From the NCBI GenBank assembly GCA_016199805.1, contig JACQGC010000013.1, forward strand, positions 66,327 to 130,326: a stretch of DNA of 64,000 nt. The letters are read 5' to 3'. The notes under the pieces are model-generated. The model made no database searches and had not been told where the DNA came from. It saw only the letters and a program-made list of their open reading frames with translations. Shown here piece after piece: positions 3 through 50,707 of this stretch. The stretch is from Candidatus Nomurabacteria bacterium (GTDB lineage: Bacteria; Patescibacteriota; Minisyncoccia; Phycocordibacterales; UBA9973). Position 1 is the first letter of the stretch, and every line of letters starts with the position of its first letter. The position numbers and the translations under genes are program-made.

Positions 3-662
3 GTGGAAATCACCAATCCCGAAAATATCAAGCAAATAAAGGGTGTTTTGCGGATGAAAAAAGGCGATGTAATTAGCCTTTCGGATGGCAAAGGCACCAG
101 TGCAGAGGTTATTATTGATTCCATATTTTCCGATAAAATTGCGTGTATTGTTAATAAAAAACCCCACTCCGCTAAAGCTTCGCGGGGTGAGTATAGAAAG
201 GTAAGTCTTTACCTTTCTATACTCAAAAAAGAAAACTTTGAACTGGCAGTGCAGAAAGCGGTTGAATGCGGAGTATCAAATATCACACCCGTCATCACCG
301 AGCGCACTATAAAAACCGGATTGAATATAAAGCGTCTGGAAAAAATAATTCTGGAAGCGAGCGAACAGTGTGGCCAAAGCATGGTACCCACCCTCTCCCC
401 TATTTTAAAATTCCAAGACGCACTAGCTGATGGCGATAAATCAGATCAAAAAATAATCTTTCACCTAGGTGGTATCGACTTTCCCACATACGGAGGCAAC
501 GCCTCCGTATGTATCTTTATAGGCCCGGAAGGCGGTTTTACCGATAATGAAATTAACCTAGCAGAAAAATCCGGCTATAAAGTGGCCTCCCTCGGCCCGC
601 TCGTCCTCCGAGGCGAAACCGCAGCCATTGTGGCGACATATCGTGCCGTGCAGGCGATTTAG
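3..662 (+). CDS. rsmE: 16S rRNA (uracil1498-N3)-methyltransferase RsmE, 5'-partial (ORF begins outside the window)
   Basis: ORF 3..662. C-terminal motifs 'IFIGPEGGFTDNEI' and 'LGPLVLRGETAAI' are typical of the RsmE/SPOUT family. Confidence 0.7.
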   Translation: MEITNPENIKQIKGVLRMKKGDVISLSDGKGTSAEVIIDSIFSDKIACIVNKKPHSAKASRGEYRKVSLYLSILKKENFELAVQKAVECGVSNITPVITERTIKTGLNIKRLEKIILEASEQCGQSMVPTLSPILKFQDALADGDKSDQKIIFHLGGIDFPTYGGNASVCIFIGPEGGFTDNEINLAEKSGYKVASLGPLVLRGETAAIVATYRAVQAI

Positions 663-707
663 CGAAATCGTGCCGCGCAATCGTCCATTAAAGCGCGGCT
701 TATTGTA

Positions 708-1337: not shown

Positions 1338-3122
1338 TTAATAAACCTCCTGCTGATAACATTTTTCGCAATAGACTATTTCTCCAGAATCTGGACTATA
1401 CCCTGTCTTAAACTCTTCCCCGCACAGGGAATCTTTGTGTATGTGAGCTACGGTATTTTTGTATACCCCAGTTTCGTCGGTGTTTCCAACACACATGCAA
1501 GATCTTTCATACAATTTTATTCCAAGGCGCAATTTTAACCTTTCTGCTGTACGGCAAACGGGACATAATATGGGCAAGGGTGTATTGGTTTTTTTATAAA
1601 AATTAAGTTCATTATTTGTAACTCTAAAAGCCTTAGTGCAACCCTGATTGCATTTTACTTTGTGTGCACATTCAAAGACTTCACCAGTTATTGAATCATT
1701 AACATTGTGAATACTGTCAGGGATATCACCTACTAAAACTGTCGGGACATAGTTTTTCGTGTCCACATCCCTCCATCTATATCCTTTTGTGGTTGCTTCC
1801 TCTTTTGTCATCGGAAAATATTCTTGAGCGATGGTTTCGTTGTAAGCCCACGGACTGAATTCTATGGGAAAAAATTCTCCATATTTATATATTCTTCCTT
1901 TCTTGTCTACGTATGGCATTTCGTTCATATGTTTTTTAATTTTTTCAACCATATCAAAATATTCTTCCTTGGCATATTGCTTATTTAAAATACAATACTG
2001 ACTCTTTCTGAGAGAGACACATCCAAATATATTTTCACAACTTCGGCAACACACTGTGTACTCGGCATTGTGCGTGTTTTCTTGAGTTTGAACAGAAAAT
2101 TTTATATTTTGAACATTGGCTCCGCTTATCATTACCTCATACAGTAATTCTGCTCCTTCGCCCCAGTTGGAATAATCATAACTATCTTTTGCGCTTGGGG
2201 TAGCTTGTAAATACTGACAATAGCGTAGATTTTCTCCTTCCCTTACCAAGAAAGAATCTCTTACATTTTTTGAGTGGGTAATATATGAACCAGTGGAATT
2301 TATATTTTTAACACCTTGAATATTTTTATTTGGAAATTTTTTCCAAAAACTTAAAGCTTTCTCCCAAGCTTTTTCAACTCCCCCTCTGGTGTAAAGTTTA
2401 TACTCTTTTAATTTCTTTTCGTAATCTTCCTTGGTGCATTGTTCATTAAAAAAACAATAATTTTTATTGCGTAAGTTAACGCAGCCAAAACAATTCATAC
2501 ACCCTTGGCAATCCTTACAGAACCAGAGATCGCTTGATTCCGAACATTGTGAAGAATAGAACACTTTATAACTTGAAGTAATCCAAAAACTTTGGTAGCA
2601 CATTTCTGCCTTATCACAATGAGACATATCTACACAATCTTTTGAGTTATCAATTCCGTTAGAATACATGGAGTCCTCAGTCCAGTTGGAATTGAATATA
2701 AGATAAGAATTCTTGGGGTCGGTGGCATTATTTACATAATCACTATTTACACCCTTAATGACATTATTGCATCGGAGTGGCACTTCTCGCCACAAATCAA
2801 GCAATTGTGGCAAAAATGGCCTGGACCAATCAATATCTTTTCCATAATCCATCGGATTCCACACATCAGAGAGCCAAATATCTCGGTCATATACTTTTAC
2901 GGGAGAATCTGGAGCATACATAGAGAAAATTTCTTTGCCGGAAAAATCGCATTTTCTTTTATAGAGCCCCCGCTCATTGCGGAAAGCCCAACGTCTTTGC
3001 GCACGACATAGCGGGCAAAACGTCGGCGGAGGAACTTTCATCTTTTCGTAAAAGTTAAAATCTTCTTGGTCTATTACAAAGTCTTGCTTGCAGTTTTGGC
3101 ATGTTTTAGTTTCTTGGTTCAT
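1338..3122 (-). CDS. cysteine-rich repeat protein, paralog A (594 aa; terminal Zn-ribbon-like CxxC pairs at both ends)
   Basis: About 60 Cys residues. Repeated C-x-[DN]-C-x2-C-F-x-C-x2-L-R-N-K-x-Y-C-x2-N-x-Q-Y-x-K-E-E-Y modules. N- and C-terminal 'FYEK..P.P..CP.CR' motifs. Clear paralog of 9179..10837. Confidence 0.6.
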   Translation of the reverse strand: MNQETKTCQNCKQDFVIDQEDFNFYEKMKVPPPTFCPLCRAQRRWAFRNERGLYKRKCDFSGKEIFSMYAPDSPVKVYDRDIWLSDVWNPMDYGKDIDWSRPFLPQLLDLWREVPLRCNNVIKGVNSDYVNNATDPKNSYLIFNSNWTEDSMYSNGIDNSKDCVDMSHCDKAEMCYQSFWITSSYKVFYSSQCSESSDLWFCKDCQGCMNCFGCVNLRNKNYCFFNEQCTKEDYEKKLKEYKLYTRGGVEKAWEKALSFWKKFPNKNIQGVKNINSTGSYITHSKNVRDSFLVREGENLRYCQYLQATPSAKDSYDYSNWGEGAELLYEVMISGANVQNIKFSVQTQENTHNAEYTVCCRSCENIFGCVSLRKSQYCILNKQYAKEEYFDMVEKIKKHMNEMPYVDKKGRIYKYGEFFPIEFSPWAYNETIAQEYFPMTKEEATTKGYRWRDVDTKNYVPTVLVGDIPDSIHNVNDSITGEVFECAHKVKCNQGCTKAFRVTNNELNFYKKTNTPLPILCPVCRTAERLKLRLGIKLYERSCMCVGNTDETGVYKNTVAHIHKDSLCGEEFKTGYSPDSGEIVYCEKCYQQEVY

Positions 3123-3129
3123 CGTGAGG

Positions 3130-5316
3130 TCATTCTAAAATTTTAAGCAAAACATCTTCCGGCACTTCATTGGTGGGCTTCAGGGGCACTGGAGCTGGAG
3201 TAGGAATTGTTTCCTCCCCTCCTTTGGACCCAGTAGGTGATTTTGCTAAATCAGGATTGCTGCCAGCAGGCGGGGTGGTGATTTCTTTTTCTGGGGTGGT
3301 AATTTTTTCCGGTACAGAAATTTTTGTGGAAATCAAATCCTTTAATTTATTCATGTCTTCGGCGCTGGCAGCGCGGTCGCCTCGGGTAAATTGGTTTGCA
3401 GGTTTTGACGAAGCAACTTCTTTAATTTTATCTTTCAAGGAATCCAGCGAAATAGGGGCCGGAATAGGCGTCGGTACGGGTGCTGGTTTCTGAAGTGGCT
3501 CAATAATTTTCGCTTTTGGTTCAGCCATAACTTTATTCAAAACTTCTTTTAGAGCGGGATTTTCTTTTGGTTTTATCTGGGGTTTAATTGCCAAGCTCGG
3601 CGTAAAAGCTTTTTTAATAGTACCTATTATTCCGGGCTTGGGCGCCAAATTCACGAGTTTTGGCATTGTAACTACCGGTCTTACCGTCACAGGCGGTTTA
3701 CCTGTGTGGTCTTCTCTTTCATGATATCTTTCACCTTCTTCAACGCGACTTCTGTCTTTTTGCTCAAATTCAATACCTAGGTCTGCCAATGGCTTGTAAA
3801 ATTTCGTCTCATCGTACTTGATTTGGTCTTGACCCCTTTTTTCCACTTTCACTTCTCCGGATTTTATTTTAGCAATACAATCTTTGCAGTAAACCGGGCG
3901 TCCGGGCTCTGGTTTGAAAGGTACCGTCTTCTCCAAGCCACACAGAGAACACAGGATTTTAAACTTCTCCAAATTTCCACTGCTTATATCGCTGTCGTTG
4001 CCGAGAGACATTCCGCTCCAATTATTTATTTCTCTTTCGACTTCTTCCTTCGTTTTACAATAAAGCTTGCGCGAGGACTGTATCACTTCTTCTTCCACTT
4101 TTTTATCACCGGACTTTACCATCGGCGGCAAGGTCTTGGCTGAAAATGGGCGTGAGGTCACTCCGTCTATCATCAATTTCAAATAAACTTTGTAGTTCGG
4201 CAGATTCACGATGTCTCCTGGCGTAAACTCCGGGTCGAATTCGCTTTCCAAAAAGTCCGCGTCGTCGGAACCTACTCGGAAGACTATCATCGTGCCCACG
4301 TTGCCGAAAACCGCATCGCGCACCGCGGAGCTCTTGTCCATCACCAGCTGAGCCGTATACTGGTGCGCCACTGTGAGATTTAAGCGGTATTTTCGGGCCT
4401 CGGACAATATGCCGGCGAAAGCATCCGTCACGAAGTTTTGGAATTCATCCACATATAAATAAAAGTCTTTGCGGTGTTCCTCGGGTATGCGCACGCGTTC
4501 CATGGCGGCCAGCTGAATCTTGGTGATAATCATTCCGCCGAGTAAACTGGAATTGTCTTCACCGATACGCCCCTTGGAAACGTTGACCAAGAAAATCTTA
4601 CCGTCGTTCATGACGTCAAAAATATTGATGGTACTTACAGATTGGCCGACGACATTGCGAATGATACTGGTGGAAAGAAACTGCCCGACTTTGTTTTGAA
4701 TAGGCGCGATGGCTTCGTTTCGGAATTTATCCTGCCAAGCCTCGTATTCGTGCACCCAAAAAGCTTTGATGACCGGGTCTTTCAAATTACCGATTATTTT
4801 CTGGCGATAATCTTTGTCCACCAATAATCTCGGAATACCCAAAAGCGTCGTACCGGGAGTGTCGAGCAGAGCCAAAATACAATTGTTTAAAATATATTCC
4901 ATTCGGGCGCTCCAGGCATTGGCCCAAATCTTGGTGAAAATACCCATCAGCCCCGAGGCTACCAGGTGTTTGTATTGCGAGTCTACCAATTCGAGGACGT
5001 TGAAACCGACATGATACTCCGCATCGGCCGGGTTGAAATAAACCACGTCTTTGATGCGGTGCGGCGGTATGGCAGAGAGCACCCCTTCTACCAGCTCGCC
5101 GTGCGGGTCTACCACGCACACACCTTCGCCGTTTTGGATGTTCTGAATAATCATGTTGAACATCAGCACGGATTTACCGGTACCGGACTTTCCGAGGATG
5201 TAAACATGCTGGCGCCTGTCTTTGCGCTTGATGCCAAAAAGCTGATTGCGGTCGCGAAAAGTCGTCAAACCCAGGTAGGTAATGTCTTTATTTATAGGTA
5301 TTTCCGGGAGTTCCAT
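3130..5316 (-). CDS. TraD/VirD4/FtsK-HerA-superfamily P-loop ATPase (soluble, no N-terminal TM); C-terminal Zn-ribbon and Pro/Lys-rich low-complexity tail
   Basis: Walker A 'YILGKSGTGKS' followed by 'VVDPHGE'; Walker B 'LYVDEFQNF'; 'VAHQYTAQL' matches the coupling-protein Q..QL motif. 'CSLCG...PFKPEPGRPVYCKDC' forms a CxxC...CxxC ribbon. The last ~250 aa are P/K/E/T-rich. Confidence 0.6.
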   Translation of the reverse strand: MELPEIPINKDITYLGLTTFRDRNQLFGIKRKDRRQHVYILGKSGTGKSVLMFNMIIQNIQNGEGVCVVDPHGELVEGVLSAIPPHRIKDVVYFNPADAEYHVGFNVLELVDSQYKHLVASGLMGIFTKIWANAWSARMEYILNNCILALLDTPGTTLLGIPRLLVDKDYRQKIIGNLKDPVIKAFWVHEYEAWQDKFRNEAIAPIQNKVGQFLSTSIIRNVVGQSVSTINIFDVMNDGKIFLVNVSKGRIGEDNSSLLGGMIITKIQLAAMERVRIPEEHRKDFYLYVDEFQNFVTDAFAGILSEARKYRLNLTVAHQYTAQLVMDKSSAVRDAVFGNVGTMIVFRVGSDDADFLESEFDPEFTPGDIVNLPNYKVYLKLMIDGVTSRPFSAKTLPPMVKSGDKKVEEEVIQSSRKLYCKTKEEVEREINNWSGMSLGNDSDISSGNLEKFKILCSLCGLEKTVPFKPEPGRPVYCKDCIAKIKSGEVKVEKRGQDQIKYDETKFYKPLADLGIEFEQKDRSRVEEGERYHEREDHTGKPPVTVRPVVTMPKLVNLAPKPGIIGTIKKAFTPSLAIKPQIKPKENPALKEVLNKVMAEPKAKIIEPLQKPAPVPTPIPAPISLDSLKDKIKEVASSKPANQFTRGDRAASAEDMNKLKDLISTKISVPEKITTPEKEITTPPAGSNPDLAKSPTGSKGGEETIPTPAPVPLKPTNEVPEDVLLKILE

Positions 5317-5355: not shown

Positions 5356-5916
5356 TTATTCCTCGGGTTCGGTGCCTTCTCTTATCAACCTATTCTGCCT
5401 ATCTCTCAGCGCTTTCCAAGCTGCCAGTCTTTCTGCTTTTTGTTTTTCTTTTCTATCTTTCGCTCTTTTTTCCGCTGCCATTTTTTGCAATTCTTTTTCT
5501 TTCAAATCCTCGTTGCCGCCTTCCATTATTTCTTTTCTCGTTAGTCTTTTATATTCTGGTTTTCGTGCCAATGGAATGTTGCTTGATTCCGGAGCATCGA
5601 CCAAAGTATCTTTTATCTCGGTTGGGATAGTAGGTAAAATATCTGGGTCAGTTTTTAAATAATCCAATGCACGCATAATTCCTCCTTGAATTGACAAACT
5701 GGGAGAATTTTTGCCACTCAACCAACCCTCAACTACACTTTGAACTGTTCCGCCTGTGTCATTTTCTATAAAGCTCATTACGGCTTTTTCTCCATGTCTT
5801 TCCACAAGAGAATCAAGTTTGTTTTTATATGCAACTATCTCTGGATTCAAAGGACGCGGTTCTTCTTTCCTGCCTTTCCTTTGCGGTATTCCACCAAAAT
5901 CTCCTTTTTCGTTCAT
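5356..5916 (-). CDS. hypothetical K/E-rich protein (186 aa), tandem paralog 1
   Basis: Shares 'GGIP', 'NDTGGTVQSVVEGWL' and 'RKEIMEGGNEDLKEKE' blocks with the adjacent ORF 5925..6425. C-terminal Lys/Glu/Arg-rich predicted helix. Confidence 0.5.
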   Translation of the reverse strand: MNEKGDFGGIPQRKGRKEEPRPLNPEIVAYKNKLDSLVERHGEKAVMSFIENDTGGTVQSVVEGWLSGKNSPSLSIQGGIMRALDYLKTDPDILPTIPTEIKDTLVDAPESSNIPLARKPEYKRLTRKEIMEGGNEDLKEKELQKMAAEKRAKDRKEKQKAERLAAWKALRDRQNRLIREGTEPEE

Positions 5917-5924
5917 AAATATAT

Positions 5925-6425
5925 TTAACTTTTATTTTGCTCTATTAAAGTTTTTAACTTTTCTGTTATTTTTTGTCTTGCCCTCGCTATGTCTTTTTCT
6001 GTTTTCATTCTTAATTTTTCCCGTTCAATAGTTTTTTTTGTTATCTTTTTTAACTCTTCATCGTCTCCTTCCATTATAGCCTGCCACCTATGTTCTCTTG
6101 TCAGTAATTTTGGTTTTGGTTTAAACGGTAAAACACTTTTTATATTTGGCCGAAAATTTTCCAGGACAGAAATAACATCTCTGCAAATTCCCGGACTTGG
6201 AGTATGTTCGTTATTTAACCACCTTTCAACCACTATTGGGAGTACACCTCCTATAGTATTATTTTTTATGTATTTTATTATAAAGTCTCTGCTGTGTTTT
6301 TCTAAAAGAGAATTAAATAAACCCAAAAATTTAACCGTTTCTGGATCTGTCCGACGTTCTTGTTTAAAACTACTTCTTGGTGGTGGTATTTTAGGTATTC
6401 CTCCAATTTGTTGTCCTGGATGCAT
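5925..6425 (-). CDS. hypothetical K/E-rich protein (166 aa), tandem paralog 2
   Basis: Paralogous to 5356..5916 ('NNTIGGVLPIVVERWL', 'REHRWQAIMEGDDEELKK'). First gene after the dnaK terminator. Confidence 0.5.
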   Translation of the reverse strand: MHPGQQIGGIPKIPPPRSSFKQERRTDPETVKFLGLFNSLLEKHSRDFIIKYIKNNTIGGVLPIVVERWLNNEHTPSPGICRDVISVLENFRPNIKSVLPFKPKPKLLTREHRWQAIMEGDDEELKKITKKTIEREKLRMKTEKDIARARQKITEKLKTLIEQNKS

Positions 6426-14474: not shown

Positions 14475-14517
14475 TTAAGTTATAAAGTTAAAAGTTATAA
14501 AGTTCATAAAGTAAAAC

Positions 14518-36012: not shown

Positions 36013-36108
36013 GATGTTTTAGTTAAAAGTTATAAAGTTTTTAAAGTTATAAATAATCTTACTTTACGAACTTTCTACTCTTGTTATTATACACTATGTG
36101 TCAAGAGG

Positions 36109-43042: not shown

Positions 43043-43527
43043 CACCATCTTCACCAACGACGCCAACCCAAAAACCCATTCGCCTCGGGACTTGGATAGG
43101 GGTAATCGGGGTTTTAATCTTTATTGTAATGGTAGTTGTTTTCTCTCTAGCTAGCTCATCAAGAACAACAGTAGAAAATAAAGCCGAAGCGGAAAATGCA
43201 GCTGCACAAGAAATAGCTGCCGCGTACGCCCGCAGTCTGGCTGCCCAGGAAGCCGCGCAGGTGATTCCCGAAGTACCGGGATTCCCTCGCGCTGGCGACG
43301 GATACCCAACCAAGGACAAGCCTACTAAGGCTTGGATTGACCCCAACAAGACCCACACTCGGGCTACGGCGGCAGTACAATACTGCGTCGCTGATCCCGA
43401 AAACAGCGAGATGTGCTGGACCGACCATATGGACGGTCATGATGTAGGGTTTCGTAATTTCCCGGCTGGACCATACCTCGTCTCCCCGCTTGGAGATGGC
43501 AAGGTTTTCTTCCACTGGTGGCAGTAA
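43039..43527 (+). CDS. hypothetical membrane-anchored protein (162 aa), translationally coupled to the SPFH gene (ATGA overlap)
   Basis: P/T-rich N-terminus, TM 'WIGVIGVLIFIVMVVVFSLA', Ala-rich segment, Cys pair 'YCVADPENSEMCW'. Same elevated GC as the SPFH gene. Confidence 0.45.
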   Translation: MTPSSPTTPTQKPIRLGTWIGVIGVLIFIVMVVVFSLASSSRTTVENKAEAENAAAQEIAAAYARSLAAQEAAQVIPEVPGFPRAGDGYPTKDKPTKAWIDPNKTHTRATAAVQYCVADPENSEMCWTDHMDGHDVGFRNFPAGPYLVSPLGDGKVFFHWWQ

Positions 43528-43634
43528 TTCTTCGCTAGTAGTAATGGCCGTAATCACGTTGGCCACGTAACACAAAAGGGGCGCTCGTTTACGAGACGCC
43601 CCTTTAGCATTTCTATTTAGTATTTTCCCCTTAC

Positions 43635-43973
43635 TTACTCGCTTAGATGCACTTCCCCTGTCTCCGGAGTCACTCCCTTTATGCCAAAAGTATTTATAAC
43701 TATGTTGAGTATCGTAAAGACTCCGAGCATAATAGTAATCCCGATGACACCCCAGAGCATGTGGCTTTTGCCTGAAGTTTTTTTCTCTTCGTTTTCTTGA
43801 TTCATTATAAACTCGAGAACGCCATAGAGAAAATAAACCACAGCTAGCGCAAATAAAAGTCCAATCAGCGGGTTGATAATCAGATTATCAACATTGGCGA
43901 TGAATCCGTTCAGGCTCGTGCTGGGTGCAGCATAGGCTATCTTTGTGCTAAAAAAACTAAGCAGTAAATCCAT
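43635..43973 (-). CDS. small two-TM pilin-like protein (VirB2/TrbC-like topology), array member 6 (112 aa)
   Basis: 'LIGLLFALAVVYFLYGVLEFIMNQENEEKKTSGKSHMLWGVIGITIMLGVFTILNIVINTF' fits the family pattern TM1 - charged loop - TM2. Confidence 0.45.
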   Translation of the reverse strand: MDLLLSFFSTKIAYAAPSTSLNGFIANVDNLIINPLIGLLFALAVVYFLYGVLEFIMNQENEEKKTSGKSHMLWGVIGITIMLGVFTILNIVINTFGIKGVTPETGEVHLSE

Positions 43974-43977
43974 ATTT

Positions 43978-44415
43978 TTATTGAACTACGGGTACTGTAG
44001 GAAGCGTAATGTTTGCACTGTTACCGACATTGAAAAATGTGTTTTTCAAAACATTTACAAGTCCCCACATACCGATAATCACAGCCAAACCGATGATGCC
44101 GTAAATAATTCTGTCTCGTCCTCTTGTCTTTGCCTCTTCGTCATTGGCAACAACGAAGGTAATGACTCCCCAGACAAAGTAAACGACTCCTAGGGCTATC
44201 AACACAGGAACTACAGCATTTAGAAATACTCCGATTCTGCATAGTAATCCAAACAAAGTTGCGTTTTGTCCGGCATAGGCTGCAGGATCGCAAGATGTAG
44301 TACTACCATTTATAGTAACCTGCGCGAATGCGACGATAGGCGCTAAAGCGAAAAACACACCCGACAATACCATTAAATTCTTTTTCATACGATTTTGCGA
44401 AATCGTGTCGCGCAA
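43978..44415 (-). CDS. small two-TM pilin-like protein, array member 5 (145 aa)
   Basis: Signal peptide. 'VPVLIALGVVYFVWGVITFVVANDEEAKTRGRDRIIYGIIGLAVIIGMWGLVNVLKNTF'. Confidence 0.45.
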   Translation of the reverse strand: MRDTISQNRMKKNLMVLSGVFFALAPIVAFAQVTINGSTTSCDPAAYAGQNATLFGLLCRIGVFLNAVVPVLIALGVVYFVWGVITFVVANDEEAKTRGRDRIIYGIIGLAVIIGMWGLVNVLKNTFFNVGNSANITLPTVPVVQ

Positions 44416-44525
44416 CCGTCCTTTAAGCGCGACGCAATTAACGAACTTATAATAAATGCGACCTAATAATAATTAAACTAATAATGTTACTTAATTATAC
44501 CCCTTGCCCAAATATGAAGCAAATT

Positions 44526-45233
44526 CTACTTTTGAGGCGGAACCACAGTAGGAAGCACAGAACTCCCTGTCTTGATTGCAAAAGTAGTCTGTAGAATATT
44601 AACCAAACCCCAAACCGAAAGCATGACCGCTAGGGCAATTATCCCCCAAATCATAAACTGCTTACCTTGCGCCCTTTTGGCTTCCTCGTCGGCATCAAGA
44701 ATGAGAAACTTTACCACTCCCCAAATAAACATAACCACAGCCAGCGCAAAAATGAATGGAATGATCGAGTTGCCTATGATACAGGTAAAGAAATCAAGAT
44801 AGTCGGAAAGTTTTGGTTTTCCTGCACCCAAGTCAGGACAACCGGAACCGGAATTTTTTGTAGTGGTCACTAAATTACCAAGGTCGGGAGTTTGACCGAC
44901 TCCCAAGCCGGTTGTTCCGCCTAAGCCGAATGTCTGATTTAGGATAGCTACCAATCCCCAGATGCTGACTATGACCGCCAAACCGATGATGCCGTAAATA
45001 ATTCTGTCGCGGCCATTCTTTTTAGCTTCCTCTCCATCAGCAATGAAATATTGCACCATTCCCCAGATAAAATATAAGACGCCAAATGCAACCAAAACCG
45101 GTAAAATAGCTTTAAAAAGATCGCTAATCTTGGTAATCACATCCGTCAAACCAGTGGCTTGAGCGGAAGCAATAAACGGTACAAAAACTGCAAGTAAAAG
45201 TATTGTAATAAATTTTAATAAATTTTTTTTCAT
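44526..45233 (-). CDS. tandemly duplicated two-TM pilin-like protein, array member 4 (235 aa; two modules)
   Basis: Module 1 '...YFIWGMVQYFIADGEEAKKNGRDRIIYGIIGLAVIVSIWGLVAILNQTF'. Module 2 '...MFIWGVVKFLILDADEEAKRAQGKQFMIWGIIALAVMLSVWGLVNILQTTF'. Confidence 0.45.
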   Translation of the reverse strand: MKKNLLKFITILLLAVFVPFIASAQATGLTDVITKISDLFKAILPVLVAFGVLYFIWGMVQYFIADGEEAKKNGRDRIIYGIIGLAVIVSIWGLVAILNQTFGLGGTTGLGVGQTPDLGNLVTTTKNSGSGCPDLGAGKPKLSDYLDFFTCIIGNSIIPFIFALAVVMFIWGVVKFLILDADEEAKRAQGKQFMIWGIIALAVMLSVWGLVNILQTTFAIKTGSSVLPTVVPPQK

Positions 45234-45234
45234 G

Positions 45235-45537
45235 TTATTTAGGTAATAATTTATTAAGGTCAGAGTTATTTATGTAGTTGTTGTCGTCCAAATTAAAAGT
45301 ATTAACAAGAATAAATACAAGTCCCCATACACTAATAATCACAGTCAGACCGATAATGCCATAGATAATCCCGTCTTTCCCTTTCTTTTTTGCTTCTTCG
45401 CTATCACCAATCATATATTGCACTATACCCCAAACAAGATAAACCACACCCAGAGCAACCAAGACAGGAATAACAGCTCCAAATATCTCATTTATTTTAC
45501 ACAACACACTAAGTATACCGGGATTACATGTACTCAT
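45235..45537 (-). CDS. small two-TM pilin-like protein, array member 3 (100 aa)
   Basis: 'IPVLVALGVVYLVWGIVQYMIGDSEEAKKKGKDGIIYGIIGLTVIISVWGLVFILVNTF'. Confidence 0.45.
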   Translation of the reverse strand: MSTCNPGILSVLCKINEIFGAVIPVLVALGVVYLVWGIVQYMIGDSEEAKKKGKDGIIYGIIGLTVIISVWGLVFILVNTFNLDDNNYINNSDLNKLLPK

Positions 45538-45563
45538 AACAAATTAAGTTAAATTAATAATAT

Positions 45564-45932
45564 TTACAAAGCCAAAACGGTGGCAGATATCATCTGCGCT
45601 ATCGCCCACGCACCCAATAATATCGCCGCACCTATCATTGTATAGAGCAAGGCGTCTTTGGCGTGAGTAATCTTTTCCGAGTTTCCTCTGGCAAAAACAA
45701 ACAGAAAACCGCAGTAAATGACGGCCAGCGCCACGACGGGAATTCCTATTTTGAGCATACCTTCCAGGATGCTTTGAATGAGTCCGGGTAAAGTGTTGTT
45801 GGTATTTAGTGGGTTACATATGACTCCCTTGGAAGGATCACAAGCGGGGTCATTGGCAAGAGAAATAACAGGTAAAACAGAAACATACGCGAGTACCGCC
45901 AACTTCTGCCAATTTTTTTGAATGAAATTCAT
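45564..45932 (-). CDS. small secreted two-TM pilin-like protein with Cys pair, array member 2 (122 aa)
   Basis: Signal peptide, 'ACDPSKGVIC', TM1, loop 'ARGNSEKITHAKD', TM2. Confidence 0.4.
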   Translation of the reverse strand: MNFIQKNWQKLAVLAYVSVLPVISLANDPACDPSKGVICNPLNTNNTLPGLIQSILEGMLKIGIPVVALAVIYCGFLFVFARGNSEKITHAKDALLYTMIGAAILLGAWAIAQMISATVLAL

Positions 45933-45960
45933 TGTTCTTTAATTATATACCTTTTTTCTG

Positions 45961-46371
45961 CTAAAAACCAATCCAGGCGCCACTATAGCCCAAAATCGAT
46001 AATAATGTCTTGACTATAAGCCAGGCCGCGGCGGCGAGGATGAGGCCAATCACCGCGTTGGTAAAGACTTTTTTGGCTATACCCCTCTTCTCGGTGCTGC
46101 CTCCGGAGCTTACCAGCTCGAATCCGGCATACACAAACATTATGGCCGCAATCGGTATGGCCATGAAATAAAGGGCAAAATTTATGAGCGTGTTTACCAG
46201 GGTCATCAGCGCATTAAAATCACAGGGGCCGGGATTGCTTTTTGTTAAACATGGCACCAGTCCGGAAGTCGGAGGAGTGTTCGCCAGAGAAAAAGCCGGA
46301 ACGGCCAGCAACACAGCAAGCACAATTACGAATGTATAATTACGAATTACGAATTTTTTTACTTTTTGCAT
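45961..46371 (-). CDS. small secreted two-TM pilin-like protein with Cys pair, array member 1 (136 aa)
   Basis: Signal peptide, 'PCLTKSNPGPC', TM1, loop 'SSGGSTEKRGIAKK', TM2. Confidence 0.4.
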   Translation of the reverse strand: MQKVKKFVIRNYTFVIVLAVLLAVPAFSLANTPPTSGLVPCLTKSNPGPCDFNALMTLVNTLINFALYFMAIPIAAIMFVYAGFELVSSGGSTEKRGIAKKVFTNAVIGLILAAAAWLIVKTLLSILGYSGAWIGF

Positions 46372-46394
46372 TTTATTACTTTACGAACTTTTTA

Positions 46395-47684
46395 CTATCT
46401 CGAGAAGAGCAGACTCATTTTGGCACTCGCATCTTTGATGGAGTCCCCGACCGACATGTTATTGGAAAGCACATTATTAATCATACCACTAAAAATATTA
46501 TCTGTGTCTTTCGAAGATGGGTCCACCCAGCTTTTGGCGTATAGAGCGGAGCTGTAAAAAATCGGTGAATAGGCATCTGTGGGCTTGATGGCAAGCAAAT
46601 CTCGCCTGGCCGGAGCCACACCCGTAGCCAGGGCAAACTTGGCCGCAAAATCACTAGTAGCCATACGGCTCGCGGCCACAAAGGCCGTATTGATGTTCTT
46701 GGAAAAAGCCGAGATGGCCAGCCCGGTGACTCTGGCGCTGGTAAGTTTAAAATTCGCATTCTTCATCTGGGGAAACGGGGCTATAAAAAAGTTTTGATTT
46801 GGATTTCTATTTACGAGAGTTTGTAGCTCGGAAGCAAAGCCAAAATAAAGTGCCGAATTTTCCGATGAAAAAACATCCAGAGAACTTGGAAAGGACGCAT
46901 TCCAGGAATACGTGGCGACATTGTTTGGGTCGGCAAAATCCGTATAAAATTTTAGCACGCCGGGAAGATTGGTATTCCCTGCCGATGAATCCAAGGTTGA
47001 GCTGAAAATACCGCCTGATTCCGCGACGATAGGATTTCCGGCTTGCATAAACAAGGCGGCCAAAATATCTTTGGCATTATTCACATTTGAATAGTGTCCG
47101 AGTGCTACTTCCGGTTTTACTATTTTATTTGAACTGTCTTTTTTGACCAGGGTCGGCACAAGAGCTACTAAATCATCCCAGGTGGCGGGTGGATACACTA
47201 CTCCGCTCGCATCCAAAATACTTCGGTTGTAGTACATCATGAGCGGGTCTACAGACATTGGAAAAGCCAAGATGCCCTTCCCTGTCAGAAATACTTCCCC
47301 TGCTCCGGCAAAAACATTTTTAAAAGAAGAGAGCGGGTAGCTGGAATACGGAATGGCCAAAATTTTGTTGGCATAATGAAAGGCCAAATCGTCCGGTAAG
47401 AAAAAAATATCTGGGCCGGAACCGGTAGCCAGGGCTTCAAGTAAATCTTGGTCAAAAGTATCTGAAGACTTTTGCACATATTTCACCACAAAAGTCGGGT
47501 TGGCATTATTAAAATCCTCGAGCGGAGCGTTTATCATACTCGTAGGCACTGTGCCCCATAGAGTAACCGTGCCCAGACTGGCTGTATTGTCACTCCCCAA
47601 TTTTATCGCTCCGGAAAAAACCAAAATACCGAAAATAGCGGCGGCAATGAATACGATTAAAATAATAAGTTGAAAATTTTTCAT
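46395..47684 (-). CDS. membrane-anchored extracellular solute-binding-protein-like protein (SBP family 1-like)
   Basis: N-terminal TM. 'TFVVKYVQKSSDTFDQDLLEALATGSGPDIFFLPDD' is typical of SBP_bac_1. Its stop is 24 nt upstream of array member 1. Confidence 0.5.
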   Translation of the reverse strand: MKNFQLIILIVFIAAAIFGILVFSGAIKLGSDNTASLGTVTLWGTVPTSMINAPLEDFNNANPTFVVKYVQKSSDTFDQDLLEALATGSGPDIFFLPDDLAFHYANKILAIPYSSYPLSSFKNVFAGAGEVFLTGKGILAFPMSVDPLMMYYNRSILDASGVVYPPATWDDLVALVPTLVKKDSSNKIVKPEVALGHYSNVNNAKDILAALFMQAGNPIVAESGGIFSSTLDSSAGNTNLPGVLKFYTDFADPNNVATYSWNASFPSSLDVFSSENSALYFGFASELQTLVNRNPNQNFFIAPFPQMKNANFKLTSARVTGLAISAFSKNINTAFVAASRMATSDFAAKFALATGVAPARRDLLAIKPTDAYSPIFYSSALYAKSWVDPSSKDTDNIFSGMINNVLSNNMSVGDSIKDASAKMSLLFSR

Positions 47685-47715
47685 TTTTACTTTACGAACT
47701 TTATAACTTTCTACT

Positions 47716-48231
47716 TTATAACTTCCTTAAGATTATACCATAATGGTGCGCTCCGGCATCAATATCGCGAACCCAGGCAAAACCTTTTTTTTCAAACATC
47801 GTCCGCGCTTTTTCCCTGGGTACAATTCCGCCCCCTTTCATGATAGACTCCTCCGACCAATCAACCAAAAGCACCTTGCCGTTTGGCTTCAATATCCTTT
47901 TTATCTCCTCGATAAATTTTTCTTTGTCTTCAACCTGGAAGAGTACATTTGAAGCTATGGCTACATCCACTACTGTGTCGGCAATTTTCGTGCCACCCAG
48001 TTTTTCAATATTTCCCCAGATAATTTCCACGTTCGAGAGATGCGCTTCTTTTACCTTATGTTTGATGGTATCCAGAAAATCTTTCTGTAATTCAACGGCG
48101 TAAACTTTTCCCCGGGGCACGACAGCTCCGGCCGCCACGGAATAAAATCCGGTCCCAGCGCCCAAATCAGCCACGATATCATTTTCAGCAAGTCCCAAAG
48201 TTTTTAAATTTTTTACCGGGTCGGTAAACAT
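47716..48231 (-). CDS. class I SAM-dependent methyltransferase
   Basis: Motif I 'VADLGAGTGFYS'. 'LKPNGKVLLVDW'. Confidence 0.7.
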   Translation of the reverse strand: MFTDPVKNLKTLGLAENDIVADLGAGTGFYSVAAGAVVPRGKVYAVELQKDFLDTIKHKVKEAHLSNVEIIWGNIEKLGGTKIADTVVDVAIASNVLFQVEDKEKFIEEIKRILKPNGKVLLVDWSEESIMKGGGIVPREKARTMFEKKGFAWVRDIDAGAHHYGIILRKL

Positions 48232-48247
48232 ATTTATATTGTACCAT

Positions 48248-50707
48248 TTATATGCAAGCGAGCGAGGCTATACCGTCTCCTCCGCGCAGGCGCATGACTG
48301 TCACGCCTTGAGTCTGACGCCCCAATGAAGAAATATCTTTGAGGGGTGTGCGGATGACCTGTCCTTTTTTGGACATGGCTATGAGCTCGGCTTCTTCGCC
48401 ACTGAGTACTTTGGCCACAATAAGCTTGCCTGTTTTTGGAGTCACTTTGGCTGTCTTTACGCCGGAGCCGCCGCGCTTTTGAACTTTGTATTCTTTCAAG
48501 TCGGTTTTCTTACCAAAACCGTTTGCGCTCATGGTCAGGAAGGCCGCCTTTTCACTGGTCTTCTTTATGACATCCACGCCGATGACTTGGTCACTTTTAC
48601 CAAGTCTGATGCCACTCACCCCGCCGGCAGTTCGTCCCATTTCGCGAACATCCGATTCTTTAAATCTGATGGATTGTCCGTCGGCAGTAGCTATCATCAC
48701 TTCGTCTCCTTTTTCAGTTACCAGCGCGGAAATAAGTTGGTCGTCTTTGTCGAGCCGAATAGCAATGATACCGCTACGGCGAACATCTTTGAAACCGGAG
48801 CTGGCCATTTTCTTGGCTGTGCCGCTTTTGGTGACAAGCATCAAAGAAGAAGGCGTCGTGCCCAAATCTTTTGGCATAGCCAAAATAGACGTGACTTTTT
48901 CATCTCCGGAAAGAGCCAAGAAATTCATGATGGATTTACCACGTGTGGCTCTACGACCTTCGGGAATATCGTACATTTTCATTTGGTAAACTTTTCCGAG
49001 GTTGGTAAAGAACAAGAGGTTGCTGTGCGTGGAACCGGAAACCAACATGGTCACAAAGTCTTCTTCTTTGGTTTCGAGGTCTATCACCCCCACTCCGCCG
49101 CGTTTCTGCGCGTGATATTCCGCAGGATCGGTGCATTTCACATATCCGCCGGCAGTCAGCACCAGCATGGTTTCTTTCTCCGGAACCAAATCTTCGTCGG
49201 AAATTTCTTTGACTCCGCCTTTGACTATCCTGGTTCTTCTTTCGTCGGAATATTTTTCCCGGATTTCTTTCAGTTCATCTGCGATGGTCTTCAGTATTTT
49301 CTTTGGGCTCGAGAGTAAGTCTTTCATCATGGCAATAAATTTCTGCTTCTCGGCAAGTTCATCTTCCACCGCTTTGCGCTCCAGTCCGGCCAGTTTTGCC
49401 AGCTTCATTTCCAAAATAGCCGTGGCCTGCAGGTCCGAAAACTTAAATTCCTTCATCAGGTTTAGTTTAGCCAGCTGGGAATTTTTTGAACCACGGATGA
49501 CGGTGATGACCCGGTCTATCTTATCCAGGGCTTTCTTTAAGCCGAGTAAAATGTGTTCCCGTTCTTCAGCTTTACGCAAGTCATAAGCGCTTCGGCGTTT
49601 GACAACTTCTTTTCTATGCTCAATAAATAAGGCTAAAATGGATTTTAGGGATAAAGTTTGAGGCACTCCGTCCACCAAGGCTACCATGTTGAAATTGAAA
49701 TTTGATTCAAGCTGGGTATTTTTGTAAATATAATTTAAAACTTTCTCGGGGTGCGCGCTCCCTTTCAAATCAATAACGATGCGAATGTCTTTGGTGGATT
49801 CATCTCGCAGACCCTTGATACCTTCCAGCTTTTTTTCCTGCACCAATTCCGCGATACTGACAATCAAATTGGCTTTGTTTACCCGGAAAGGAATGGAAGT
49901 TATAATGATAGAGAAATTCCCATCTTTTTGCTCGACTATTTCCGCTTCTCCTCGGCAAACCACTCCGCCGCGGCCAGAACCGTATGCATGAAGCATGTCT
50001 TTGTAGCCATAGGCAATGCCACCCGTAGGGAAATCCGGACCTTTTACAAATTGCATCAGGTCTTCGGTAGTGGCTTCATCGTTTTCAATTAAATAATTTG
50101 TCGCGTCCAAAACTTCCGCAAGATTGTGTGAAGGAATGTTTGTTGCCATACCAACGGCGATACCCAAAGTACCATTCAAGAGAAGTGCGGGCACGTTGGC
50201 TGGTAAAACTATCGGTTCTTTGCGGGTTTGGTCATAGTTTGGACGGAAATCCACTGTTTCCTTTTCCAAATCTTTCAGCAGTTCATTTGAAATTTTAGAC
50301 ATTTTTGCTTCGGTATAACGCATAGCCGCGGCATTGTCTCCATCTATAGAACCGAAGTTTCCTTGCCCGATAACCAGCGGATAACGATAAGAAAATTCCT
50401 GGGCCATACCCACCATGGAATCATAGACTGCTGTGTCGCCATGTGGATGATATTTTCCAAGCACATCTCCGACAATGGCCGCGGACTTGCGAAAACGCGC
50501 CGTGGAAGTGAGCCCCATTTCATTCATACCAAAAAGAATTCGGCGGTGCACTGGTTTGAGCCCATCCCGAACATCCGGCAGAGCGCGCGAAGTGATGACC
50601 GACATGGCATAGGCCAAGTATGACTCTTTCATTTCAGCAACGACATCCACTTGCAGAATTTCGTCTCTGGGTTTTTCTTCAATTGTTTCTACGTTCTTCT
50701 TCGCCAT
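48248..50707 (-). CDS. gyrA: DNA gyrase subunit A
   Basis: '[18 protein letters not shown]', '[26 protein letters not shown]', C-terminal beta-pinwheel repeats; 819 aa. Confidence 0.95.

Follow-up and report, generated by a model that had tools for sequence, protein, structure and literature searches.

A conserved array of six T4SS_pilin paralogues, among them a fused double pilin, in the chromosome of a Candidatus Nomurabacteria bacterium

A chromosomal stretch of 64,000 nucleotides from Candidatus Nomurabacteria bacterium (hereafter the window) carries on its minus strand six small genes in direct succession, which, judged by their sequences, are real paralogues of the VirB2/TrbC superfamily and belong to the T4SS_pilin family (T4SS, type IV secretion system). 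They are numbered p1 to p6 following the direction of transcription. The explanation that we consider probable is that they form a conserved operon of six non-redundant VirB2/TrbC-type pilins, which would provide the subunits of a heteromeric pilus or conduit of a VirB4-type T4SS encoded elsewhere. The members of the array are as follows (all positions refer to the window).

p1: 45961..46371, minus strand; 136-aa T4SS_pilin paralogue with predicted signal peptide, conserved Cys pair, and two helices; forms a TrbC-like subgroup with p2
p2: 45564..45932, minus strand; 122-aa pilin, the sole member that also passes the TrbC/VirB2 model
p3: 45235..45537, minus strand; 100-aa pilin without signal peptide; optional member, nearest to module a of p4
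p4: 44526..45233, minus strand; 235-aa tandem double pilin (predicted signal peptide, module a, linker, module b)
p5: 43978..44388, minus strand; 136-aa pilin if read from ATG, with a TTG-start open reading frame extending to 44415 (145 aa); the most conserved member
p6: 43635..43973, minus strand; 112-aa pilin that lacks a Cys pair and whose N-terminus is short and atypical; terminal gene of the array

An earlier reading of the same DNA (hereafter the original prediction) had described six consecutive minus-strand genes, and the list of open reading frames (ORFs) confirmed them back to back at 43635-46371 (136, 122, 100, 235, 145, and 112 aa), with intergenic gaps of 28, 26, 1, 110, and 4 bp from p1 to p6. 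Five of these lengths stand. The start of p5 is most likely the ATG at 44388, which gives 136 instead of 145 aa, because the 136-aa product is identical in length and sequence (100%) to a database protein (P0001) and the orthologues begin with MKKK. The source annotation of P0001 is Candidatus Nomurabacteria bacterium. The conserved core motifs that had been quoted for the array were recovered in all seven modules (p4 contributes two), which can be aligned across both helices and the loop between them. The two modules claimed for the 235-aa gene appeared as two separate domains (aa 26-106 and 139-222) when a lineage-specific hidden Markov model (HMM), built from the modules and their relatives, was applied. 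In the whole window, this model matched only p1 to p6 (E 1e-22 to 3e-60), which excludes chance.

All six proteins exceeded the curated gathering cut-off of the Pfam family PF18895 (T4SS_pilin; 26.6 bits), and this family was the top match for every one of them (40.3, 35.5, 47.3, 72.8, 33.3, and 27.8 bits for p1 to p6, the value for p4 being the sum of two stretches). The sole additional family above its cut-off was TrbC/VirB2 (PF04956), which was matched by p2 (34.8 bits, gathering cut-off 27.9); p6 reached 15.4 bits with this model and the remaining four proteins gave no match. The assignment to VirB2/TrbC-like pilins in the original prediction therefore held in the comparison with the Pfam T4SS pilin families by which it had proposed to be checked. 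The modules fall into three similarity groups, namely p1/p2 (TrbC-like), p3/p4a/p4b/p5 (core), and p6. A profile of 65 p5 homologues aligned with the profile of the p1/p2 orthologues at 96.5% probability (hhalign, E 8e-10), and the core group and the TrbC-like pair are therefore placed in one superfamily. Among the NCBIfam models, NF045849, the Mbov_0395 pilin-like conjugal-transfer family of Mycoplasma integrative and conjugative elements (ICEs), was the best for all six proteins; its cut-off of 40 bits was not reached by five of them (16.9-34.9 bits), and p4 passed it (42.4 bits) only via two summed stretches. More than 1000 homologues were found for p5, and homologues carry the source annotation pilin or T4SS pilin. 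A tblastn search of p2 against 72,556 plasmids gave no match.

Hydropathy analysis identified two hydrophobic segments per module in all six proteins, that is, a leader plus two such segments in p1, p2, and p5 and a leader plus four in p4. The p4 and p5 proteins were modelled with AlphaFold2 (AF2) using alignments, and the predicted hairpins consist of two helices of approximately 35 residues each. In p5, the helices span residues 45-80 and 84-118 (predicted local distance difference test, pLDDT, 68); in p4, they span residues 29-64 and 68-102 in the first hairpin and 142-178 and 183-218 in the second (pLDDT 63), with a linker whose residues 105-129 have pLDDT values below 50. Canonical leaders with n-, h-, and c-regions, ending in SLA, ASA, or AFA, were recognized from hydropathy and sequence in p1, p2, p4, and p5. 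The p3 protein begins directly at its Cys pair (MSTCNPGILSVLC...) and contains two hydrophobic helices without a leader, which is also the case in its orthologues, and the N-terminus of p6 is a short uncharged stretch (MDLLLSFFSTKIAYA) that is non-canonical as a Sec signal. Hence, the signal peptide proposed for all six proteins is retained as a prediction for four of them, is missing in p3, and is doubtful in p6. A Cys pair in the N-terminal segment, which had been ascribed to the first two genes, is present there; it is not peculiar to them, since p3, module b of p4, and p5 also possess it and only module a of p4 and p6 lack it. The pair in p5 (C33/C50) is invariant or nearly so in the 65 homologues, and that of p2 is missing in the orthologues of two relatives (L004 and L006). 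The loop (DxEEAKxxGRDR) had been taken for a basic one and is of mixed charge, with a net charge of roughly zero.

Module a of p4 is encoded at 44916-45158 and module b at 44568-44819, with a Gly/Thr-rich linker of about 30 aa in between. The two halves are 44-51% identical to each other, from which it follows that the fusion is old, and the fused double pilin is found in 69 of 83 related loci. The highest identity of any pair within the window is that of p3 and p4a (62%), and p3 looks like a later duplicate by this measure; roughly one quarter to one third of the related arrays contain it, and it is missing, for example, in L001 and L005. A library-wide search with p4 yielded about 7,900 related cluster representatives, of which some 40-50 cover both modules. 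Three of these relatives (P0142, P0149, and P0150; 317-357 aa) show three matched stretches, and triple-module pilin fusions may therefore exist as well, as far as the alignments indicate.

Exact look-ups of p4 and P0001 yielded no record, and the genomic context was therefore drawn from homologues. The comparison with related loci comprised four contigs obtained via p5 homologues and 80 loci from a scan of one genome per species; 87 sequences were analyzed (86 loci and the window), and many of the counts refer to 83 loci. The metagenome-assembled genomes of the scan (80 loci) are all of the Nomurabacteria/Paceibacteria type, which agrees with the bacterium of the candidate phyla radiation that had been supposed as the setting. 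On the four contigs found with p5, gyrA, a methyltransferase gene, and a solute-binding protein (SBP) gene are followed by five or six pilin genes of matching sizes. Among the 87 sequences, 52 have five and 30 have six pilin genes. The order is fixed as p1 p2 [p3] p4(double) p5 p6; the commonest form is p1 p2 p4a+p4b p5 p6 (35 loci), the form of the window with the additional p3 occurs in 11 loci, and p6 closes the array wherever it is complete. Orthologues at the same position share on average 58-72% identity (p1 58%, from five genomes; p5 72%). Paralogue pairs mostly average 24-50%, with the exception of p3 compared with p4a or p5 (56-58%), which overlaps the low end of the orthologue range; the pairs within the window are 20-62% identical. 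The ratios of nonsynonymous to synonymous substitutions (dN/dS) relative to the closest relative (L004) ranged from 0.04 to 0.13 for the pilins, with the lowest value for p5 (0.041), but the synonymous changes are near saturation, which makes the ratios rough; gyrA (0.016) and the SBP and methyltransferase genes (0.05 each) were calculated for comparison. The longest DNA repeat between members measures 115 nt (70-72% identity). Switch-like flanking inverted repeats, invertible segments, or long identical repeats were not found at the array. Position-specific orthology, the fixed order, the purifying dN/dS values, and the lack of switch-like repeats together argue for a stable set of distinct, non-redundant subunits instead of a fast-varying repertoire, as judged by sequence comparison.

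A variable repertoire is nevertheless the alternative that survives best. According to this explanation, which is close to the diversified repertoire of the original prediction, the paralogues would be swapped or alternatively expressed to alter the cell surface, either to evade recognition or to match different host strains. Such surface variation has been proposed for the VirB2 paralogues of Bartonella and Anaplasma and suggested for the arrays of Patescibacteria (PMC12102498). It would be in line with the low identity within the array, with the different gene numbers (five or six) and the local duplications at differing positions in related arrays, and with the distribution of variation in the p5 family, most of which falls into the external segment at the N-terminus and the tail at the C-terminus, the helices and the loop showing hardly any change (65 homologues). 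However, five orthologue groups recur in unchanged order in 83 species-level loci, each position being conserved separately and closer to its orthologues than to most paralogues, and the dN/dS values are low across whole genes. The 115-nt repeat has diverged too far to permit gene conversion at a high rate, the genes are not flanked by inverted repeats like those of invertible switches, and the six pilin genes of Candidatus Southlakia, each of which was classed as essential, point to non-redundant roles (PMC10633639). We therefore regard a variable repertoire as unlikely.

The spacer upstream of p5 differs from the other junctions of the array, being long in nearly all loci, with a median length of 113 bp in contrast to 11 bp. 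It contains the following element, which was recognized in an alignment of five genomes.

Promoter-like element in the p4-p5 spacer: 44458..44522, minus strand; TTGCTT (44517-44522), 17 nt, TATAAT (44494-44499), then ATTATTAG..ATTATTAGGTCGC (44458-44485)

A TAYAAT sequence is present in 69 and ATTATTAG in 54 of 83 p5 spacers, and the window contains no second copy of the motif. Immediately behind the -10 box, ATTATTAG..ATTATTAGGTCGC forms a direct repeat, which may represent an operator or the start of the 5' untranslated region. The promoter-like spacer of its own and the highest conservation of all members make p5 the candidate for the major subunit.

For the explanation of the array as an operon of non-redundant pilins, the following course of events is the likely one. 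The proteins would insert into the cytoplasmic membrane such that both ends face outward and the charged DxEEAKxxGRDR loop faces inward, and for four of them (p1, p2, p4, and p5) a Sec signal peptide that is cleaved off is predicted. From the membrane pool, a T4SS of the VirB4 type with its genes elsewhere in the genome would then pull the pilins, which would assemble into a heteromeric pilus or an envelope-spanning conduit. In this structure, p5 would be the abundant major subunit, and p1, p2, p4, p6, and the optional p3 would be minor or specialized ones. The external C-terminus of hairpin a of p4 would be tied by the flexible linker to the external N-terminus of hairpin b; since these ends are both external, p4 could enter the polymer as a preformed dimer. 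By analogy with Southlakia, contact with a host cell or exchange with it is the most likely function of the structure, as opposed to conjugation.

Several observations weigh against this explanation. VirB4, VirB6, and PrgI were absent among the scanned ORFs of the window and within 10 kb of the array in the 83 related loci, so the adjacency to VirB4/VirB6 homologues that the original prediction had suggested looking for does not exist there; an unannotated Walker-A protein of at least 500 aa was also not found within 10 kb in 86 loci. The partner machine of the VirB4 type is thus assumed to lie elsewhere in the genome; in Paceibacteria, the VirB4 cluster is typically located near dnaA. According to reviews, a pilus or filament of a patescibacterial T4SS has never been shown. 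Two members (p3 and p6) are without a canonical signal peptide, and the likely role of p5 as the abundant major subunit is deduced from conservation and a promoter-like motif. The confidence of both AF2 models is moderate. A Foldseek search of both against the Protein Data Bank (PDB) gave no significant match to a solved VirB2/TraA pilin (the best conjugative-pilus match was 8dft_A, E=5) and otherwise returned unspecific helical hairpins (for example, those of CopM and EncB), every one of them at E >0.7. The fold search was uninformative because a two-helix hairpin with pLDDT values in the 60s is too simple to discriminate. Sequence and profile searches of the PDB did not retrieve a pilin either, whether p2, the p5 family, or the p1/p2 family served as query.

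Directly upstream of the array, two genes on the same strand precede p1, as claimed in the original prediction, and gyrA lies before them on this strand.

Solute-binding protein: 46395..47684, minus strand; 429 aa, membrane-anchored, SBP_bac_1 with a MalE-like N-lobe (PF01547, E 6.6e-24); PDB matches to MalE and sugar-binding SBPs
Class I S-adenosylmethionine-dependent methyltransferase: 47716..48231, minus strand; 171 aa, Methyltransf_31/11/25 matches

The SBP gene lies directly upstream of the first pilin gene in 80 of 83 loci, and the methyltransferase gene lies directly upstream of the SBP gene in 76 loci (80 if additional SBP-like ORF calls are skipped). Where the third gene upstream could be read, it proved to be gyrA in 50 loci, whereas in about 25 an unannotated gene is inserted at this place. 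The junction between gyrA and the methyltransferase gene is a recurrent insertion site, with a Y1 transposase in L005 (3542-4198), about 18-25 other loci affected, and an opposite-strand gene of about 208 aa in many others. The methyltransferase-SBP-pilin block itself was never interrupted in the related loci and is whole even where the linkage to gyrA is broken. A gene for an ABC (ATP-binding cassette) ATPase was detected neither in the window nor within 10 kb in related loci, which makes the SBP an orphan. The link of the methyltransferase to the SBP and the pilins is one of gene order, and any functional tie is putative.

The window represents ordinary chromosome, with genes for DnaK/GrpE, RpoA, ribosomal proteins, AlaRS, BipA, ClpB, IF-2, tRNAs, GyrA, Mur ligases, and SecA. 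The array is located between gyrA and housekeeping genes of the IF-2/ClpB type, a position that is kept in 83 related genomes, and the GC content over the array is unremarkable. Farther upstream, the contigs of ten relatives (L001, L018, L019, L025, L050, L054, L056, L062, L073, and L081) begin approximately 20-25 kb from the array, which suggests a shared assembly-breaking repeat, perhaps an rRNA operon, at this distance.

The constant SBP neighbor gives rise to a second alternative, in which the two-helix proteins would not form a filament but stay in the membrane and constitute, together with the SBP, a new SBP-dependent uptake or sensing complex that works independently of VirB4. The position of the SBP gene, the persistence of the block beyond the linkage to gyrA, the orphan state of the SBP, and the lack of a VirB4-sized ATPase nearby would all be compatible with such a complex. 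On the other hand, the family is homologous to TrbC/VirB2 pilins, PF18895 sits inside T4SS clusters in other Patescibacteria, and the pilins gave no match to a transporter-like family in Pfam or NCBIfam. Furthermore, synteny within a single lineage can be inherited and does not have to be functional, and orphan SBPs are common, their permeases often being encoded elsewhere. An SBP-dependent membrane complex thus appears quite unlikely to us. A related idea, which we rate as very unlikely, is that in the Nomurabacteria lineage the methyltransferase-SBP-pilin block is a self-contained surface apparatus uncoupled from the VirB4 cluster, in which the hairpins, the fused dimer among them, would build up a heteromeric tube or a complex in the membrane and the anchored SBP would capture host-derived sugars at or near it. 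The strict linkage to an orphan sugar-type SBP supports this minority view of nutrient capture. If it were true, the block would be a pilin-based device for nutrient acquisition and not a pilus for secretion or conjugation.

Near the beginning of the window, a gene was found with which the array had been proposed to pair.

VirD4/TraD-like P-loop protein: 3130-5316, minus strand; PF10412, PF02534, and PF12696 matches

This gene is located 38 kb from the array, with housekeeping genes in between. The encoded protein has no membrane helices or N-terminal anchor; it contains a treble-clef zinc finger at aa 451-483 and ends in a tail of some 250 aa of low complexity. Almost all Patescibacteria have homologues of type IV coupling proteins (T4CPs), of which 5,713 were counted in 2,918 genomes and no more than 148 lie near virB4, and the homologue of Southlakia is dispensable (PMC12102498). 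The distance, the missing membrane anchor, and the ubiquity of mostly virB4-unlinked T4CP homologues argue against the proposed pairing with the array. The gene is followed by one for a 594-aa protein very rich in CxxC motifs (1338-3122, minus strand), and just upstream of it lie genes for two paralogous proteins of about 170-186 aa (5356-5916 and 5925-6425); family matches were obtained for none of the three.

An integrated conjugative element, whose mating pilus would be formed by p1 to p6 and coupled to the VirD4-like ATPase, is highly improbable. Apart from the Pfam matches of the latter protein, the origin of the nearest NCBIfam pilin family from Mycoplasma ICEs would speak for it. Yet the scan of window ORFs with 150 aa or more, which covered nearly all ORFs of this size, detected neither a relaxase nor an integrase, and relaxases are rare in Patescibacteria in general (109 in 103 genomes), where T4CPs are mostly unlinked to virB4 (PMC12102498). 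The VirD4-like protein has the unsuitable location and architecture described above, and an origin from a mobile element was rejected on the basis of the conserved housekeeping synteny, with which the unremarkable GC content is in accordance. Unrelated small membrane proteins of the holin or PspC kind, which would match the pilin model merely by their hydrophobic composition, are scarcely credible despite the proximity of p6 and p5 to the Pfam cut-off, many weak matches to other two-helix membrane families (E >0.001), and the non-specific fold search, because PF18895 leads for all six proteins and, TrbC for p2 aside, is the only family above cut-off, the loop motif and the helix spacing are conserved beyond composition, the homologues are annotated as pilins, and a holin, PspC, or other unrelated family was not matched by any of p1 to p6 in the Pfam and NCBIfam scans.

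Besides the promoter-like motif, two further elements were noted at the array.

Two-hairpin leader: 44383..44441, minus strand; abuts the p5 start codon; 6 of the 13 pairs in the consensus structure are changed on both sides
Intrinsic terminator after p6: 43573..43602, minus strand; GC-rich stem followed by UUUUG, -25.4 kcal/mol, z -6.1; none of 200 shuffled sequences folds as well

The two-hairpin element has a length of about 59 nt and consists of GUCGCGC-N14-GCGCGAC followed by UGAUUU-CGYA-AAAUCA. A covariance model detected 23 copies in 1.36 Mb, distributed sporadically in about one fifth of the genomes (L005, L014, L020, L022, L034, L041, L048, L050, L054, L056, L057, L065, L067, L069, L070, L074, L077, and L078, in addition to the window). 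The copies in related loci are all on the gene strand, and most of those inspected end 0-4 nt before a start codon; the genes behind them are mostly pilin genes and in one case probably the methyltransferase gene. A second copy in the window (648-707, minus strand) lies between convergent genes, and the element is consequently not always a leader. A Shine-Dalgarno sequence is not visible between the element and the AUG, and Rfam contains no family that matches within 43400-48400, the element included.

A generic scan for promoters and terminators performed no better than shuffled sequences (19 promoter-like sites with 15.3 expected; 10 terminator-like sites with 9.4 expected). It missed the terminator after p6 owing to a bulged base; this terminator was found by reading the sequence and subsequent folding. 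The conserved sequence TGGTATAAT, which lies in the methyltransferase gene at its 3' end, was considered as an internal promoter of the SBP gene and rejected, because the DNA encodes the conserved C-terminal HHYGII, which accounts for its conservation. The sequence AAGTTCGTAAAGTAA occurs just upstream of the start codons of ClpB, p1, and SBP (36059-36073, 46376-46390, and 47687-47701, all minus strand), and two near-copies lie at 14500 and 16154. If two mismatches are allowed, there are thus five matches, where 0.26 are expected, and ATAAAGT units similar to the motif precede SBP or p1 in some relatives. As a signal specific for the array, it was rejected, since it is found before ClpB and at other places in the window as well.

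The ultrasmall Patescibacteria comprise a large share of bacterial diversity and apparently live attached to host cells, and no T4SS other than theirs, with its VirB2-like pilins, is known to be essential to the bacterium that carries it (PMC10633639, PMC12857230). The locus described here sharpens the picture for a second, uncultivated class and opens no new category. Tandem-fused pilins exist and are common in the Nomurabacteria lineage, and the array can stand apart from the ATPase cluster and still be tied to an orphan sugar-type binding protein. The results yield hypotheses that can be addressed by structural modelling and by metatranscriptomic and proteomic checks in groundwater communities.

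Among known systems, the closest counterpart is found in Candidatus Southlakia epibionticum ML1, in which SEML1_0014-0019 are six consecutive genes, each classed as essential by Wang et al. (2023; PMC10633639); PF18895 is assigned to all five of these genes that appear among the annotation rows listed in its supplement. Both arrays consist of six consecutive small genes of the PF18895 type, some also matching PF04956, with divergent sequences and similar structure, on the chromosome of a monoderm patescibacterium without a relaxase. The array of Southlakia, however, is embedded in a cluster with VirB4-, VirB6-, and PrgI-like genes, which has no equivalent in the window or within 10 kb in its relatives. 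Here, in contrast, the array follows a methyltransferase and an orphan SBP gene, includes one fused double pilin, and has one member without a signal peptide. Southlakia belongs to the Saccharimonadia, whereas the array described here comes from the Paceibacteria/Nomurabacteria.

The pilins of diderm T4SSs (TrbC/VirB2/TraA of the T-pilus and F-pilus) share with p1 to p6 the two long hydrophobic helices and the short charged loop, and the signal peptide before them is predicted in p1, p2, p4, and p5. They differ in that adjacent VirB3-B11 and a VirB5 are absent here, the host is a monoderm, and six paralogues take the place of one major pilin; in addition, the loop is of mixed charge and external N-terminal Cys pairs are present. 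Patescibacterial T4SSs are described in a 2025 review as the only pilin-bearing T4SSs of monoderms. The Mycoplasma family Mbov_0395/MMCAP2_0565 (NF045849), likewise from monoderms, covers the two-helix core (model positions ~8-79 of 80), but its genes are ICE-borne, single-copy, and situated beside a VirB4-like ATPase. Several virB2-like genes in tandem are also known from the host-associated Bartonella and Anaplasma phagocytophilum (comparison according to PMC12102498); their paralogues are thought to give antigenic variation, whereas the orthologues reported here are stable and under purifying selection.

Arrays of this kind were catalogued by Quinonero-Coronel et al. (2025; PMC12102498), who searched 3,035 Patescibacteria genomes with PF04956 and PF18895 and reported 441 VirB2 arrays from 383 assemblies. 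These arrays comprise 2-11 genes each, with identities inside an array of 25% on average and 54% at most; two or more PF18895/PF04956 genes in tandem, or with one gene in between, count as an array. The arrays were most abundant in Microgenomatia and Saccharimonadia, and host-range or antigenic variation was suggested as their role. The array p1 to p6 resembles them in its PF18895/PF04956 matches, its six genes in tandem, and the low identity among its members (20-62%). The location of its pilins away from virB4 is also shared with about 40% of the catalogued assemblies, a pilin gene being near virB4 in 1,135 of 1,948. The difference lies in the interpretation, since variation was proposed there and fixed, non-redundant subunits are favored here. 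While the kind of array is thus already published for Patescibacteria, the main text of that study makes no mention of SBP linkage, pilin fusions, or a p5 promoter. The additions made here are the positional orthology of the members, the fused pilin, the linkage to the SBP and methyltransferase genes away from VirB4, and the putative p5 promoter.

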